Origin: a virus
Taxonomy: Duplodnaviria; Heunggongvirae; Uroviricota; Caudoviricetes
Length of the DNA stretch: 33,862 nt
Strand: one strand, 5' to 3'
IMG/VR virus record: IMGVR_UViG_3300017963_000216
Coordinates: 1-33,862 of that record
Positions 3,584-18,925 of the stretch are shown one piece after another; position 1 is the first letter of the stretch; the number at the start of each line of letters is the position of its first letter. The translations under genes and the position numbers were made by a program. The notes beneath the pieces were generated by a model. That model worked only from the letters and a program-made list of their open reading frames with translations. It ran no database searches and had not been told where the DNA came from.

Positions 3584-3982
3584 ATGAACATCACTACGAA
3601 ACTGATCACCGACATCGTCGAGTGCATGATCGCAGACTCTCGAAACGATCTGACCTGGGGCGACGCCCCGGTGGCCCACAAAGCAGTGGCCTTCGCTCTG
3701 GATCAAGCCAACAAGCTGGTAGAAGCCACTCCGATCTACCAAGTGTCCGCCAAGCAAACTGACCGGGACGTGAACCTTGGGTTCTTCACTGGGAAGACTC
3801 ACGACATCGCTTCCTACTGCGACGACCGGAAGGGCTATGGGCTTGTCATCGAAGAGGTGCGGCCCACCGCCATCAAGAGCGGCTACAAGGCACACAAGGA
3901 CAACATCGTGGCGAAGCGCGACCGACTGCAAGCCGAGCTGGATGCCCTCAACGCCCGCCTGGAGTCGGGGGACATCTCATGA
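3584..3982 (+). CDS. hypothetical protein with C-terminal coiled coil
   Basis: Follows promoter and leader; ATGA overlap. Confidence 0.8.
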   Translation: MNITTKLITDIVECMIADSRNDLTWGDAPVAHKAVAFALDQANKLVEATPIYQVSAKQTDRDVNLGFFTGKTHDIASYCDDRKGYGLVIEEVRPTAIKSGYKAHKDNIVAKRDRLQAELDALNARLESGDIS

Positions 3983-4218
3983 ACAAGTACCACGTCTGGC
4001 ACGTCGACGACGGCCCTGACCGGGCAGTAGCAATCGAAGCCCACGACCCGAACGAGGCAGCCCTGGAGGTTGTGAAGGACTGGGCTCTGACCTATCACAT
4101 CAACGACGAAGTCAAAGATGAAGTCATAGTTGAGTCCCTCAAGACTGGTGTCCTTCACAGCTTGACAGTTTACATCCAACCAGAGACCACTTACCACTAC
4201 GAAGTGAGACAACGATGA
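3979..4218 (+). CDS. hypothetical protein, paralog of 24915-25154
   Basis: Shared pattern YxVW...EA....(E/D)AA...V..W...V.V....(T/S)G...V....E.TY. Confidence 0.75.
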   Translation: MNKYHVWHVDDGPDRAVAIEAHDPNEAALEVVKDWALTYHINDEVKDEVIVESLKTGVLHSLTVYIQPETTYHYEVRQR

Positions 4219-6209: not shown

Positions 6210-6775
6210 ACGACCTGATCATCAACGAACGCAAAGGCGACAAGATCCTGTGGACCTACGACGGGCTCGACGGGACGACCGACATAGTCGACGAAGACTA
6301 CGTCTGCAATACCGAGCTGGTCAACTGCGACAACATACGCCTGACCCGGAGTTGCCAGATATGGATCGAAGAGCAGCTCGCAGCAGCGGTGCTGGTGGCA
6401 GCCGAGTCCGAACGAATCTGGGACGCCTGGGAGCAGTGGGAAGAGGAGACTGGTGACCTGCTAGTGGTCATCCCGTCCATCGACCACACCCCTGACGAGA
6501 TCGCCTTCGAGACTCCCGGCGTGGAGTTCCGGCTGGTGGCTCTGCACGAGGGGTGGGGGCAGGGTAGCACGTTCGTGAGTGCACCCGTGGAAAACCCAAC
6601 CTGGGGCGATGTCATGCGACAGTTTGAGGTGGCCGTACAAATGACCGGCGACACTCACCACAATTTCATGGAGGGGTTGATCCTCCTCCCGGAAAGCAAG
6701 TATCACAAACTGCCTCCGGTGTGCGAGATGCATCCCGAGGACACCATTTACCTTCAATTCTGCACTGGGAGCTAA
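6206..6775 (+). CDS. acidic hypothetical protein
   Basis: ATGA overlap; conserved-looking TWGDV...GDTHHNFMEG...FCTGS C-terminus. Confidence 0.75.
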   Translation: MNDLIINERKGDKILWTYDGLDGTTDIVDEDYVCNTELVNCDNIRLTRSCQIWIEEQLAAAVLVAAESERIWDAWEQWEEETGDLLVVIPSIDHTPDEIAFETPGVEFRLVALHEGWGQGSTFVSAPVENPTWGDVMRQFEVAVQMTGDTHHNFMEGLILLPESKYHKLPPVCEMHPEDTIYLQFCTGS

Positions 6776-7609: not shown

Positions 7610-8766
7610 TCGACTCGTACAACATCTACGGCGGCGACGGAATCGACCAGGGGTCACGCACCCAGATGGACAACGCTATCGCCCTGCCGAGCGCACGCAA
7701 GGCAGCCCTGATGCCTGACGCGCACCTTGGCTACGGCCTGCCCATCGGCGGCGTGCTCGCCACCGAGGGAACCATACTGCCATATGGTGTCGGCATGGAC
7801 ATCGCCTGCCGCATGCGGATCACGCTGGCAGCTGCGCACCCTCTCATGCTCAACGTCCTGGAGGGCAACTGCCCGCAAGAGAACGCCTACCTGGACAAGG
7901 GGCTCCGTGAAGGCACCCGGTTCGGGATGGGCAACGACTACTCGCCCGGCGAGCGTCAGAGCCACCCGGTGATGGACGACCCAGAGTGGGACACAACACC
8001 GTTCCTCCGCGAGCTGAAAGACAAGGCGTGGAACCAACTCGGCACCAGCGGTGGCGGAAACCACTTCGTCGAGTGGGGCCTCTGCACATACAACACCCGA
8101 GAGTACATCGCTCTCATGTCTCACAGTGGGTCGCGAGGCTGCGGCCATCAGGTCTGCACACACTACACCAAGATCGCCAAGGAACTGAACCCGGCTGGCG
8201 AGTTGTCGTGGCTGGACCTGAACAGCGAGGCCGGGCAGGAATACTGGCACGCGATGAACCTGATGGGCCGCTACGCTGCGGCAAACCACGAGGTCATCCA
8301 TCGCAACGTGTTCCGTATCGCCGGTCTTGGGCGTGGGGCTCACGTAGAGAATCACCACAACTTCGCATGGATGGAAGAGCACGACGGCAAGGACCTGATC
8401 GTACACCGCAAGGGCGCGACCCCGGCAGCCATCGGCGACATGGGAGTGATCCCTGGTTCCATGGCCACCCCGGCGTACATCGTCTCAGGCAAAGGCAACG
8501 CTGATAGTATCTGCTCAGCGTCGCACGGTGCGGGACGGCTGATGAGCCGCAGCGCTGCTAAGAAGGCCTTCAACTGGCCTGAGTGGCAGGATTACCTGGG
8601 CGAGCGCGGCGTGCGATTGTTGCAGGGTGGCCTGGACGAAGTGCCGGGTGCCTACAAGGACATCACCAAGGTAATGGCAGCCCAGAGCGACTTAGTCGAC
8701 ATCGTAGGGGCGTTCATCCCGAAGATTGTTATGATGGCCCCACCCCAGAAACGAGGACGCCGATGA
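7606..8766 (+). CDS. rtcB: RtcB-family RNA ligase
   Basis: MPDAHLGYGLPIGGV, VGMDIAC, QLGTSGGGNHFVE, HSGSRG, NHHNFAW, VHRKGATPA, IPGSM, SASHGAGR, DEVPGAYKDI. Start set at 7606, not 7315. Confidence 0.95.
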   Translation: MIDSYNIYGGDGIDQGSRTQMDNAIALPSARKAALMPDAHLGYGLPIGGVLATEGTILPYGVGMDIACRMRITLAAAHPLMLNVLEGNCPQENAYLDKGLREGTRFGMGNDYSPGERQSHPVMDDPEWDTTPFLRELKDKAWNQLGTSGGGNHFVEWGLCTYNTREYIALMSHSGSRGCGHQVCTHYTKIAKELNPAGELSWLDLNSEAGQEYWHAMNLMGRYAAANHEVIHRNVFRIAGLGRGAHVENHHNFAWMEEHDGKDLIVHRKGATPAAIGDMGVIPGSMATPAYIVSGKGNADSICSASHGAGRLMSRSAAKKAFNWPEWQDYLGERGVRLLQGGLDEVPGAYKDITKVMAAQSDLVDIVGAFIPKIVMMAPPQKRGRR

Positions 8767-14648: not shown

Positions 14649-15187
14649 AGTGCAACAAGTACCAGAAACTGGCGTTGAAGTCTGTGGACTATGGCTGCGG
14701 GCGACCCATTGAGTACCCACCCTACGGCCTGTGCGGCGAGATGGCTGAGGTGCTCAGTGAGTTCCACTCATGCTCTCACGGTGACGATGACGCGTTACTG
14801 CTTGAGATCGGCGATTGCCTGTGGTATATCTCTGCCATGTCCGACGACATAGGGCTGAAGCTGAGCTATGTCCTCGACGTGAAAGACCTCAAGGATGTTG
14901 TTCCGTACCCGTGCCCAGCTAGCAACCTCCCCATCTTCTGTGGGACGGTGGCAGAGCAAGTGAAGAAGATGGTGCGCGACGACTGTAAGCGTCTTTCCAC
15001 CGCCAGGATGAACAAGATCGTAGGGGCCTTACGAGGTGCGGCGAGATGTCTGCAAGGGCTCGCCAACGAACGGGAGGTGGTGCTGGATCGCAAGGGCAAC
15101 CTGATAGGTTACAGCCTGAACGAAGCCGCCTACCTGAACCTCGACAAGCTAAAGACCAAACGAGAGAAGAAAGGCAGTGTAGGATGA
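14645..15187 (+). CDS. MazG-like nucleotide pyrophosphohydrolase
   Basis: YQKLA...YGLCGEMAEV...LLLEIGDCLWYI; second half VAEQVKKMVRD...NLDKL. Confidence 0.8.
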   Translation: MKCNKYQKLALKSVDYGCGRPIEYPPYGLCGEMAEVLSEFHSCSHGDDDALLLEIGDCLWYISAMSDDIGLKLSYVLDVKDLKDVVPYPCPASNLPIFCGTVAEQVKKMVRDDCKRLSTARMNKIVGALRGAARCLQGLANEREVVLDRKGNLIGYSLNEAAYLNLDKLKTKREKKGSVG

Positions 15188-16104
15188 GCAGCATCGTTGA
15201 ATCACTGGCCAACAAAGGCCTGATCGACCCGCCAGACTTCGTGAAGTCCAACACCATGTACGAGTGCGTGGTGGGGTCTGTGGCATACGGCTGTGCCACC
15301 AACCTGAGCGACTACGACACCAACGGCTTCTGCATCCCGCCGAAGAACGTTGTGTTCCCTCACCTGAAGGGAGAGATCGAAGGCTTCGGTCGACAGAAGA
15401 AGCGATTCGGTGGCTGGCAGAAGCACCATGTGTTCGACAAGGACGCCTTGGGCGGCAAAGGCCGAGAGTACGACCTGAACATCTACAACATCGTCAACTA
15501 CATGCACCTGTGCATGGAGAACAACCCCAACATGGTGACGACGTTGTTCGTGCCTCGCGAGTGCGTTCTGTCGACCACCTCGGTCGGCGAGATGGTGCGA
15601 GAGGCCCGCCACAAGTTCCTGCACAAGGGCGCGTGGCACCGGTACAAGGGCTACAGCTACGCCCAGCTGCACAAGATGAAGGGGAAGAACCCGGAGCCCG
15701 GCAGCAAGCGGGACAAGCTACGGAAAGAGTTCGGGTTCGACGTGAAGTTCGGCTACCACACCGTCCGGCTTCTGTACGAGGCCGAGATGATCCTGAACGA
15801 GCACGACATCGACCTGCGGCGGCATCGGGAGCACCTGAAGAGCATCCGGCGTGGCGAGCAGACGATGGACGACATCATCGCCTGGGCGAGCAGCAAAGAG
15901 AAGGCCCTTGAGAAGGCCTACGAGGCCAGCTCGCTGCGTCACAGCCCAGACCAGCCCGCCATCAAGACTCTGCTGTTGGACTGCTTAGAGCACCACTACG
16001 GCAGCCTGGAGGCATCTGTGGTCCGGCCCGACGAGCTGACCCTGATCCTGGACAACATTACTGAACAAGTTCGCAAGTACGAAAGGGTACGTGACCGCAA
16101 ATAA
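15184..16104 (+). CDS. DNA polymerase beta-superfamily nucleotidyltransferase (RlaP/YcgL-like)
   Basis: VVGSVAYGCATNLSDYDTNG (GS-x-AYG...SDxD), NPNMVTTLF, KFGYHTVRL. Confidence 0.85.
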   Translation: MSSIVESLANKGLIDPPDFVKSNTMYECVVGSVAYGCATNLSDYDTNGFCIPPKNVVFPHLKGEIEGFGRQKKRFGGWQKHHVFDKDALGGKGREYDLNIYNIVNYMHLCMENNPNMVTTLFVPRECVLSTTSVGEMVREARHKFLHKGAWHRYKGYSYAQLHKMKGKNPEPGSKRDKLRKEFGFDVKFGYHTVRLLYEAEMILNEHDIDLRRHREHLKSIRRGEQTMDDIIAWASSKEKALEKAYEASSLRHSPDQPAIKTLLLDCLEHHYGSLEASVVRPDELTLILDNITEQVRKYERVRDRK

Positions 16105-16108
16105 ACAT

Positions 16109-16247
16109 TCTACCGTAGTGTTAATGGTGAGCATGACTTAGCCGACGGGCTGGGCCCCAGCGAAGGCGCACTCCTACCATGGGAGGAGAAAGTCGCAAGC
16201 ATGCCGGTTTCAACCCGGTGGAGGTGGTTCGATCCCACCCGGTAGGA
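16109..16247 (+). tRNA. atypical tRNA-like RNA with UCA anticodon-like arm and 68-nt insertion
   Basis: Acceptor TCTACCG/CGGTAGG + A; D-arm GTGT-TAATGGTGA-GCAT; T-arm GGTGG-TTCGATC-CCACC; arm GCCGG-TTTCAAC-CCGGT at 16203-16219; no encoded CCA. Confidence 0.6.
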
Positions 16248-16250
16248 CTC

Positions 16251-16283
16251 AACCCGGAGAAGGGAAACTTTCTTCGGGTTTTT
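16251..16283 (+). terminator. intrinsic terminator
   Basis: AACCCGGAGAAGG-GAAA-CTTTCTTCGGGTT then TTT; 13-bp stem including G-U pairs. Confidence 0.8.
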
Positions 16284-16296
16284 CTATGCGCTTTAC

Positions 16297-16330
16297 TTGA
16301 CTCTGCCTAGGGGCGTTGTATGCTTTAAGT
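16297..16330 (+). promoter_or_regulatory. sigma70-type promoter (subtype A)
   Basis: TTGACT(16297-16302)-N16-TATGCT(16319-16324)-TTAAGT; A/C-rich leader and AGGAG RBS. Confidence 0.8.
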
Positions 16331-16366
16331 GTAAGAGACAAACGAAACACCAACCAGGAGAGACAG

Positions 16367-16579
16367 ATGAACGAAGTCCTAGCCGAACTCGCCAAACACG
16401 AAGATCCTAAAGTCCGAGCCCTGGCCGAGAGAGGCCGGGAGCACCACAACCGACGCACCCGCATCATCGAGCTGGTACAGGAGGCTCTCCAGCAGCTTCG
16501 CCTCGACACGAAGTACCTCGTCTTCGACCTGGAGTGCACCCGCCGCGAGCGCGACGCCGCCATGGGAGATGCCCTGTGA
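16367..16579 (+). CDS. small helical protein resembling a conserved planctomycete hypothetical protein
   Basis: LQQLRLDTKYLVFDLECTRRERD resembles the motif LRLxxKYLVFDLEATRRE that I recall from Planctomycetes; not verified. Confidence 0.65.
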   Translation: MNEVLAELAKHEDPKVRALAERGREHHNRRTRIIELVQEALQQLRLDTKYLVFDLECTRRERDAAMGDAL

Positions 16580-18787: not shown

Positions 18788-18823
18788 TTGACAACCTCCA
18801 CCTAGGGTGTATACTTTAGGTAG
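18788..18823 (+). promoter_or_regulatory. sigma70-type promoter (subtype A) driving the mini-tmRNA
   Basis: TTGACA(18788-18793)-N16-TATACT(18810-18815)-TTAGGTAG. Confidence 0.85.
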
Positions 18824-18827
18824 AGAA

Positions 18828-18925
18828 GGGGGCGAAACAGATTCGACTACCGCCCGCCTGAGGCTAAAGGCCCATGCTCACAGCCGAGGGTGGCTAGGAC
18901 TCCGGGGCAGTACCGGACGCCTCCA
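18828..18925 (+). ncRNA. tmRNA reduced to its tRNA-like domain (no mRNA-like domain)
   Basis: Acceptor GGGGGCG/CGCCTCC + A with a G3-U70 wobble; stemless D-loop AAACAGATTCGAC; P2-like helix CTACCGCCC/GGGTGG(C)TAG; GAC linker; T-arm TCCGG-GGCAGTA-CCGGA. Confidence 0.85.

Follow-up and report, generated by a model that had tools for sequence, protein, structure and literature searches.

How should a phage gene be understood that has the complete frame of a transfer RNA (tRNA), including a loop that would recognise the stop codon UGA, and that carries an additional 68-nt domain on the 5' side of its anticodon-like arm? Such a gene, for an RNA of 139 nt, lies at positions 16109-16247 of a 33,862-nt stretch of DNA, which we call the window and to which all coordinates without a contig name refer; the RNA and the neighbouring features described below are on its plus strand. 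The window constitutes positions 1 to 33,862 of the IMG/VR virus record IMGVR_UViG_3300017963_000216, a 101.6-kb record (56% G+C, about 96% complete) of an uncultured phage of the Caudoviricetes that is present in marine sediment samples. A preliminary description had proposed that the RNA may be an intron-containing or switchable opal-suppressor tRNA, or a decoy for anticodon nucleases. Here we argue that the conserved gene for a tRNA-shaped RNA is, as far as the pattern of its sequence tells, real, and that its product most likely does not decode UGA on the ribosome. The reading that we favour, with about as much belief as doubt, is a non-decoding five-arm tRNA mimic that would be matured like a tRNA and used unspliced. 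Its architecture is distinct, a full tRNA frame combined with a length-conserved D-loop domain near a tRNA-repair module (RtcB, RlaP), and the searchable literature yielded no account of a tRNA-like RNA expanded in its D-loop.

The tRNA frame can be followed through the window copy from end to end. The 5' strand of the acceptor stem, UCUACCG (16109-16115), pairs at seven of seven positions with the 3' strand CGGUAGG (16240-16246), which is followed by the discriminator A73 (16247), the CCA not being encoded. U8 and A9, the 5' strand of the D-stem, GUGU (16118-16121), and the 5' part of the D-loop, UAAUGGUGA, with G18 and G19 at 16126-16127, together span 16116-16130. On the far side of the insert (16131-16198), a GCAU at 16199-16202 runs without a break into the anticodon-like arm GCCGG-UUUCAAC-CCGGU (16203-16219; UCA at 16210-16212, with U33 and A37), and then come a variable loop of 3 nt, GGA (16220-16222; AGA in the homologs), and the T-arm GGUGG-UUCGAUC-CCACC (16223-16239). 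The fully paired acceptor beside a full T-arm also emerged from an independent scan of the window. Re-reading and scanning thus bear out the features on which the preliminary description was built, namely the acceptor, the GG of the D-loop, the TTCGATC T-arm, the UUUCAAC loop and the two copies of AGCAU (16130-16134 and 16198-16202). The insert itself comprises, in order, a proximal GCAU that is an alternative partner for the D-stem (16131-16134), a hairpin UUAGCC-GACG-GGCUGG (16138-16153), a 17-nt block GCCCCAGCGAAGGCGCA (16154-16170), a second hairpin CUCCU-ACCAUGGG-AGGAG (16171-16188) that includes a conserved CCAUGG at 16177-16182, and GCAA (16195-16198).

The intact RNA is called neither as a tRNA nor as a transfer-messenger RNA (tmRNA) by ARAGORN at default settings, and the window copy has no match in Rfam, either at the gathering threshold or at E values up to 10. 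Its whole-RNA fold is as stable as that of shuffled sequences (z = -0.27). The copy in the related contig L164, introduced below, has a partial Rfam tRNA match over its 3' two-thirds (model positions 9-63; 30.6 bits against a cut-off of 29). When positions 16131-16198 are removed in silico, the remaining 71 nt receive a default ARAGORN call as tRNA(tca), as the earlier claim of a near-canonical tRNA would have it. The insert-deleted forms of the homologs X6 and L164, of 73 nt and with a 6-bp anticodon stem and a 3-nt variable loop, are likewise called tRNA(tca). Since the insert-deleted versions of all three sequences are so called, the RNA is best described as a tRNA frame plus an insertion, and the earlier view that it derives from a tRNA, has an opal-type arm and bears a structured insertion of 68 nt is supported. 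With introns allowed, ARAGORN does give a call on the intact RNA at a lowered threshold, but as a forced tRNA-Ser(aga) with a 47-nt intron and a long variable arm; this parse was dropped because its GACUU/AAGUC stem is absent in X6 and L164.

Homologs of the RNA were obtained by several routes. L164, with its RNA at 3698-3839 (nhmmer E 2.3e-41), was found through the closest RlaP nucleotidyltransferase in a large protein collection (75% identity), RlaP being encoded directly upstream of the RNA in the window. The second close homolog is a Logan contig of run X6 that spans the equivalent of 16112-16393 and differs from the window by 27 substitutions and 11 indels; its copy was rebuilt from the difference table of this one contig, at a depth of about 7. 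A distant subtype, L197, was located through the 70-aa gene downstream of the RNA, and is identical to L198 and L199, the three coming from three samples. Its sequence runs GCCAUCC-UUAGUGUAAUGGU...UAGCAC...UCUGG-UUCGAUU-CCAGG-GGAUGGC-GCCA; the tRNA frame and the insert are retained, the 3' end GCCA, and with it CCA, is encoded, and the anticodon-like loop has 6 nt. A D-region motif, UAGUGU..AAYGGU, is common to all four sequences. The RNA starts 4-5 nt after the stop of an open reading frame (ORF) in the window, L164 and L197, the copies with called genes, the upstream gene differing among them: 5 nt after the stop in L197, with the leader ACAAU, and in L164, where an extra 91-aa ORF lies between RlaP and the RNA, 4 nt after the stop of that called ORF, with the leader UUAU. 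In X6 the sequence upstream is unrelated to RlaP, and a TAA triplet, not assigned to a frame, followed by CCAA directly precedes the RNA.

From these sequences we propose a putative new family, the 139-nt phage tRNA-like RNA with a D-loop domain, with the window copy, X6, L164 and L197 (= L198 = L199) as members. All of them have the 7/5 frame, UAGUGU..AAYGGU, an insert of 68-69 nt with a GACG-loop hairpin and the distal GCAY, those with called genes lie 4-5 nt after an ORF, and all lie before a terminator, promoter and small-gene cassette. The family so far comprises these four distinct sequences. When the 2.44 Mb of fetched phage DNA were scanned strictly for the architecture, the window copy and L164 were the only true hits, and shuffled DNA gave none; the INPHARED phage collection held no similar DNA in near or distant search modes; and a scan of IMG/VR for the window-type pattern gave no match. 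Pattern matches in 185,579 bacterial genomes numbered 25, all of them due to chance as judged by nhmmer, and a looser D-region pattern gave 116 or more loci, mostly tandem tRNAs. The route through neighbouring genes (45 IMG/VR loci and seven protein look-ups) added only the L197 subtype, a scan for an allele lacking the insert found none, and the RNA region is not covered in runs X3-X5; no RNA dataset is listed among the sequencing runs. A further Logan contig, L163 (2333 nt), is identical to the window and ends inside the RNA at the equivalent of 16158; the same run holds L199.

What argues for selection on this RNA? Between the window and L164 the RNA is 74% identical, the flanking coding DNA 78%, and the third codon positions of RlaP 66%. 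As the identity of the RNA does not exceed that of its flanks, the case rests on the pattern of change and not on its amount. No pair is broken in the acceptor, UCA or T stems across the window copy, X6 and L164. Acceptor pairs 1, 2 and 3 differ among the homologs yet stay paired, with 3:70 changing from U-A to G-C, and in the UCA stem two pairs have changed on both sides (C-G to A-U and G.U to U.G). Altogether, the tRNA-type helices of the three sequences contain three double compensatory changes, and three more pairs have changed on one side. The UCA stem has five pairs in the window and six in X6 and L164 through the insertion of one base in each strand, and one G-C pair of the T-arm has become G.U in L164. 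The stem of the GACG hairpin in the insert also covaries, as AGCC/GGCU in the window, GUCU/AGAC in L164 and CGAGC/GCUCG in L197, and is weakened in X6. Invariant in the three close sequences are the UUUCAAC loop, the D-region, CCAUGG, GCAAGCA and the 17-nt block, which occurs only once in the genome. Moreover, the insert measures 68, 68, 69 and 68 nt in the window, X6, L164 and L197, a length shared by both subtypes although the sequence of the insert is almost wholly different between them. Taken together, the compensatory stems, the invariant loop and block and the constant insert length point to a selected RNA gene rather than a decaying pseudogene. The preliminary description would have read a lack of conservation of the insert and the UCA loop in homologs as decay; both are conserved, and the decay reading fails. 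The constant length and the conserved parts further suggest that the insert contributes to what the RNA does.

The position of the insert within the frame is a subtler matter. For GUGU there are two potential partners, the proximal GYAU and the distal GCAY, both of them compatible in the window copy, X6 and L164, the distal strand being GCAU in the window and GCAC in X6, L164 and L197. In L197 the distal partner is the sole one available, and the unconstrained minimum-free-energy structure forms that D-stem; the distal fold gains 7.5 kcal/mol over the proximal one in L164, and in the window copy and X6 the two lie within 2 kcal/mol of each other. Given the partner in L197, the energy in L164 and the continuity of the distal strand with the anticodon-type stem, as in a normal tRNA, we place the insert, with moderate confidence, downstream of G18 G19 within the D-loop, the distal GCAY closing the D-stem. 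It had been placed earlier between the D-arm and the anticodon arm, a position that the homologs do not favour. Nor do the homologs retain the two competing folds suggested for the insert, in that the long stem GCAUG-A-CUU/AAG-CAUGC gains a central A-C mismatch in both of them. The proximal strand might also touch the CCAUGG loop through a CAUG/CAUG contact, with which the window copy, X6 and L164 all agree. The second acceptor-like strand noticed within the insert, CCUACCA, exists in the window but is not conserved and does not covary with the 3' acceptor strand. A reading of the insert as a miniature tRNA was rejected, its closing stem and inner acceptor CCUACC/GGUAGG being found in the window only and showing no covariation.

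Does the RNA then read UGA? TGA is the commonest stop codon of the phage, ending 84 of 138 ORFs (61%), and the ORFs called with genetic code 11 cover 90% of the genome. Among these 138 ORFs there is no convincing sign of TGA as a sense codon, and TGA is not depleted as a stop. Seven ORFs have a long open frame beyond their TGA, and these look like shadow frames or have starts of their own, so that the opal suppression proposed earlier is left without a convincing read-through gene. The anticodon-type loop is canonical (U33, UCA, A37) and invariant in the window copy, X6 and L164. The 6-nt loop of L197 and the varying length of the stem imply, on the other hand, that what is conserved across the family is the tRNA shell and the extra domain, and not a codon-reading loop. 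The variable loop of the L197 subtype also speaks against a decoy made for anticodon nucleases in particular.

The rival that survives best, and that we still consider unlikely, is an intron-bearing opal suppressor, in which a nuclease would cut out the insert and RtcB would join the halves, so that a 71-73-nt tRNA(UCA) would read UGA at chosen sites or times. It would account for the default ARAGORN calls after deletion in all three sequences, for the invariant canonical anticodon loop and for the direct AGYAY repeats that flank the insert, and the phage does encode an RtcB. However, no bulge-helix-bulge (BHB, 3-4-3) motif spans the insert junctions in the window copy, X6 or L164, and neither the splicing endonuclease EndA nor archease (PF01974, PF01951) is encoded in the 96%-complete phage record. 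The insert lies outside the anticodon loop, and it matches no ribozyme family or Rfam intron above noise. The catalytic core of a group I intron takes about 200 nt or more, which 68 nt cannot accommodate. The scan for an insert-less allele turned up none, and the site and length of the insert are the same in both subtypes, unlike those of a sporadic intron. To these may be added the frequent use of TGA as the main stop, with no gene in need of read-through, and the 6-nt loop that the product would have in L197. Splicing is therefore unsupported: there is no BHB, ribozyme, EndA, archease or insert-less allele, and position and length are fixed. The same goes for the intron reading of the preliminary description. 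In a more specific form, a D-loop-interrupted tRNA(UCA) would have its non-self-splicing 68-nt insert excised by a nuclease and its halves joined by the phage RtcB, and the repair machinery would thereby switch UGA read-through on. This we rate as improbable. Were it true, it would constitute enzyme-catalysed tRNA splicing in a bacterial virus, and to our knowledge tRNA splicing at such a D-loop position has never been seen in bacteria.

A suppressor could also function without splicing, the 139-nt RNA being charged and decoding UGA with its extra domain protruding from the elbow in the manner of a long variable arm. We give this only a slim chance. The tRNA frame is complete and the UCA loop conserved, and the 6-bp anticodon stem and 3-nt variable loop of X6 and L164 are a layout that we take to be that of tRNA-Pyl. 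On the contrary side stand once more the 61% share of TGA among stops, the difference in stem length between homologs and the 6-nt loop of L197; moreover, a 68-nt domain at the elbow would be expected to sit where the ribosome contacts the tRNA.

Instead of a decoder, we favour the non-decoding tRNA mimic, for which the following course can be proposed. The 300 nt upstream of the RNA hold no promoter-like site, so the RNA is probably the tail of an upstream transcript, and its start 4 nt past a stop codon agrees with transcription as the end of the upstream operon. RNase P would release the 5' end, probably by cleavage at the 3' side of the 4-nt leader ACAU (16105-16108) that separates the RlaP stop from the RNA. 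The 3' end would be trimmed back from the terminator and receive CCA from a host enzyme. The unspliced RNA could then act as a mimic whose acceptor, T-arm and elbow engage tRNA-handling proteins of host or phage, with the extra domain as a second binding surface. Candidate partners are repair enzymes such as RlaP and RtcB, both encoded in the same block of genes, or host toxins that attack tRNA, and the use of the RNA would probably be tied to the tRNA-repair and translation-protection genes of the phage.

Several points weigh against this mimic. The RNA is no more similar between relatives than the coding DNA that flanks it, and it is not linked to RlaP in L164 and X6. The fold of the insert and the partner of the D-stem rest on three close sequences and one distant subtype. 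Expression, the ends, CCA addition and the lack of splicing are all deduced from the sequence, and the binding partners named may be regarded as candidates only. Above all, an invariant, canonical 7-nt anticodon loop on a covarying stem is the pattern that one would expect of a decoder, and the stop-codon tRNAs for Sec and Pyl are oddly shaped as well.

Among the remaining readings, the tRNA shape might serve as a processing or stability element, that is, as RNase P 'punctuation' and a 3' cap for the upstream messenger RNA. This would fit the start 4-5 nt past the upstream stop in the window, L164 and L197, whatever the gene, and the absence of a dedicated promoter from the preceding 300 nt. 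Acceptor stem and T-arm would be enough for such a role, though, leaving the invariant loop, the 17-nt block and the length-conserved insert superfluous, and an intrinsic terminator is already present; we find the idea hardly probable. Somewhat fainter is the chance of a Y-RNA-like scaffold, in which the block with AGCGAAG would bind a host Ro60/Rsr protein and the tRNA-like part would recruit a partner, as in rsr-yrlA-rtcBA loci. The invariant block matches five of the six fixed positions of the proposed Rsr motif GNCGAAN0-1G (PMC4201824), and a neighbourhood of RtcB and RlaP is typical of Ro/Y-RNA repair loci. Nevertheless, a five-of-six match to a short motif is weak, the motif is absent in L197, the phage genome encodes no TROVE (Ro60) protein, the Rfam YrlA family (RF02553) gives no match at E up to 10, and the D-arm precedes the T-arm as in a tRNA and not in the permuted order of YrlA. 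Finally, a drifting relic without function, left when an old insertion broke a tRNA gene, could explain why standard finders miss the RNA, why its fold is no stabler than shuffles and why the window stem is one pair shorter than in relatives, but it is very improbable given three helices without a broken pair in three sequences at 34% third-position divergence, the double compensations, the invariant loops and an architecture that recurs in the distant subtype, identical in three samples.

Other identities were tried and discarded. A hammerhead ribozyme was suggested by CUGACGAG...CGAAG in X6 and L164, but the core is missing from the window copy and L197, stem II fails to form and Rfam gives no match. 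The insert and the 17-nt block are single-copy in the genome, unlike a mobile element. The acceptor strands covary within the phage copies, which a phage attachment site (attP) would not need, and the homologs differ by indels of 1-3 nt, contrary to a protein-coding sequence.

The genes around the RNA provide the context for the mimic. The gene for the RtcB RNA ligase (Pfam match range 7663-8733; PF01139, E 5.4e-84, 277.8 bits) lies about 7.4 kb upstream in the same rightward block. The gene directly upstream of the RNA encodes an RlaP-family Pol-beta nucleotidyltransferase (15184-16104 in the 306-aa form as publicly called; PF10127, 2.2e-17, with 306-aa homologs) and ends with TAA at 16102-16104. 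Members of the RlaP family add one or two nucleoside monophosphates to damaged RNA 3' ends and help restore cleaved tRNA (bioRxiv 10.64898/2025.12.29.696909), and surveys of jumbo phages found RlaP together with RNA ligases (PMC7824862). The RNA indeed starts 4 nt past the nucleotidyltransferase stop and ends 3 nt before a GAAA-loop terminator, as reported earlier. The adjacency to RlaP holds in this genome but does not extend to the relatives, given the intervening ORF in L164 and the different upstream sequence in X6. Nor is the RNA a regular partner of RlaP, since none of 160 RlaP loci from IMG/VR and JGI metagenomes carries a homolog; the usual 3' neighbour of RlaP in those loci is an ORF, directly, or ordinary tRNAs. 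Elsewhere in its genome the phage has six ordinary tRNA genes.

Downstream, the intrinsic terminator (16251-16286) consists of a 13-pair stem with its GAAA loop (16251-16280) and a U tract, and homologous terminators are present in L164, X6, L195, L197 and L366. A sigma-70-like promoter for the next gene, TTGACT-16-TATGCT (16297-16324), is conserved in L164 and X6, and is followed by a conserved gene of 70 aa (16367-16579) with more than 2000 homologs. The C-terminus of its product, LVQEALQQLRxDxKYLVFDLECTRRERDAA, is strongly conserved, and the protein belongs to no Pfam family; the homologs come from phage contigs and from metagenome-assembled genomes of Planctomycetota/Pirellulaceae, and some are named 'transcriptional regulator'. 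In all four sequences the RNA precedes this same cassette of terminator, promoter and small gene. Elsewhere, the slot 5' of the cassette is occupied by non-coding stretches of 170-300 nt that are not tRNA-like (L195:575-807, L366:680-983, L197:1748-1920), with GCCGUUACC common to L195 and L366 before the terminator. The slot seems to take interchangeable small RNA genes.

It is appealing to consider what such an RNA could offer. Many tRNA look-alikes of phages escape gene finders, and, as this RNA illustrates, annotation pipelines undercount phage genes of the tRNA type. If the RNA is a mimic, it could help to identify the tRNA-binding protein of host or phage that it engages, which might be a repair enzyme or a defence toxin directed at tRNA. 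Splicing or UGA decoding, if either occurs, would make it a new route to regulated stop-codon read-through.

Other odd tRNA-like elements came to light in the same material. The window itself has, at 18788-18925, a second tRNA mimic, GGGGGCGAAACAGAUUCGAC...CGCCUCCA, with the look of a tmRNA tRNA-like domain, little room for a tag ORF, a TTGACA-like promoter of its own and no ARAGORN call. In L003, which holds the closest RlaP relative in IMG/VR, four Rfam-tRNA matches (3963-4053, 6575-6675 on the minus strand, 566-636 and 28-97) have abnormal anticodon regions, bearing 32- and 43-nt inserts or else a loop of 4 nt; one of them lies directly 3' of RlaP, like the window RNA. At L039:4135-4270, 240 nt downstream of RlaP, there is an element of 136 nt whose 5' end, GGGCGUGAUGGGUUUCGAC, resembles that of a tmRNA, and whose T-arm is perfect and acceptor stem paired 7/7; it is a candidate for a further mini-tmRNA-like RNA. 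Long tRNA-like genes of 132 and 138 nt lie in phage contigs of 150 kb and 225 kb (L327:3137-3268 and L303:779-916). With introns allowed, ARAGORN reads the L327 gene as Arg(tct) interrupted by 56 nt and the L303 gene as Asp(gtc) interrupted by 65 nt. The leader of each is of the ..CAAU type seen in L197, AGCGAA motifs recur in the L303 insert, and after the L327 gene comes a 56-nt RNA that consists solely of acceptor stem and T-arm. At L102:5540-5643, a tRNA-Lys(CUU)-like gene has a hairpin of about 28 nt in its anticodon loop and an encoded CCA, on a contig that also carries RlaP.

How, then, does the 139-nt RNA compare with the systems already known? With a canonical elongator tRNA (RF00005) it has in common the 7/5 layout, U8, G18 G19, a UUCRANY T-loop and a 7-nt loop with U33 and A37, and it differs by the 68-nt domain in the D-loop region, a 3-nt variable loop, an anticodon stem of 5-6 pairs and the lack of a free nucleotide 26. 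RNAC and RNAD of phage T4, unexplained for 50 years, are presumably similar to it in size. They are stable RNAs (species 1 and 2) from the tRNA region of T4, of unknown role (PMC3014915, PMC9697503). The likeness is one of description; the phage RNA has no sequence similarity to any INPHARED record. The Y RNAs YrlA and Yrn1 also combine a tRNA-like module with a second module and have RtcB-type repair genes as neighbours, and YrlA of M. smegmatis is cleaved by RNase P and receives CCA (PMC4201824). YrlA is circularly permuted, however, with T before D and a closed acceptor stem, and lies beside rsr, whereas the phage has no rsr and its RNA no RF02553 match. The tRNA-like domain of tmRNA similarly joins an acceptor and T-arm frame to a large internal insertion, but D-stem and anticodon-type arm are still present in the phage RNA, which lacks a tag reading frame and pseudoknots and is not recognised as tmRNA by ARAGORN or Rfam. 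Archaeal non-canonical tRNA introns, which depend on BHB, EndA and RtcB, resemble it in an insertion outside the anticodon loop and an RtcB in the genome; they differ in that the phage RNA has no BHB, its genome no EndA or archease, and its source is a bacterial virus. Lastly, tRNA-Sec and the allo-tRNAs share the UCA anticodon, and allo-tRNAs, irregular molecules found in bacteria and phages, may be suppressors or regulatory RNAs (Mukai et al. 2017, PMC5389517). Those tRNAs have 8/5, 8/4 or 9/3 layouts and a long variable arm 3' of the anticodon, and tRNA-Sec is defined by a 13-bp acceptor plus T branch (8/5 or 9/4) and a 6-bp D-stem, whereas the phage RNA has a 7/5 branch, a 4-bp D-stem and a 3-nt variable loop, with its domain 5' of the anticodon arm. 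The earlier judgement that it is not a tRNA-Sec therefore holds, and among these systems the RNA is set apart by an otherwise tRNA-like frame with its extra domain in the region of the D-loop.

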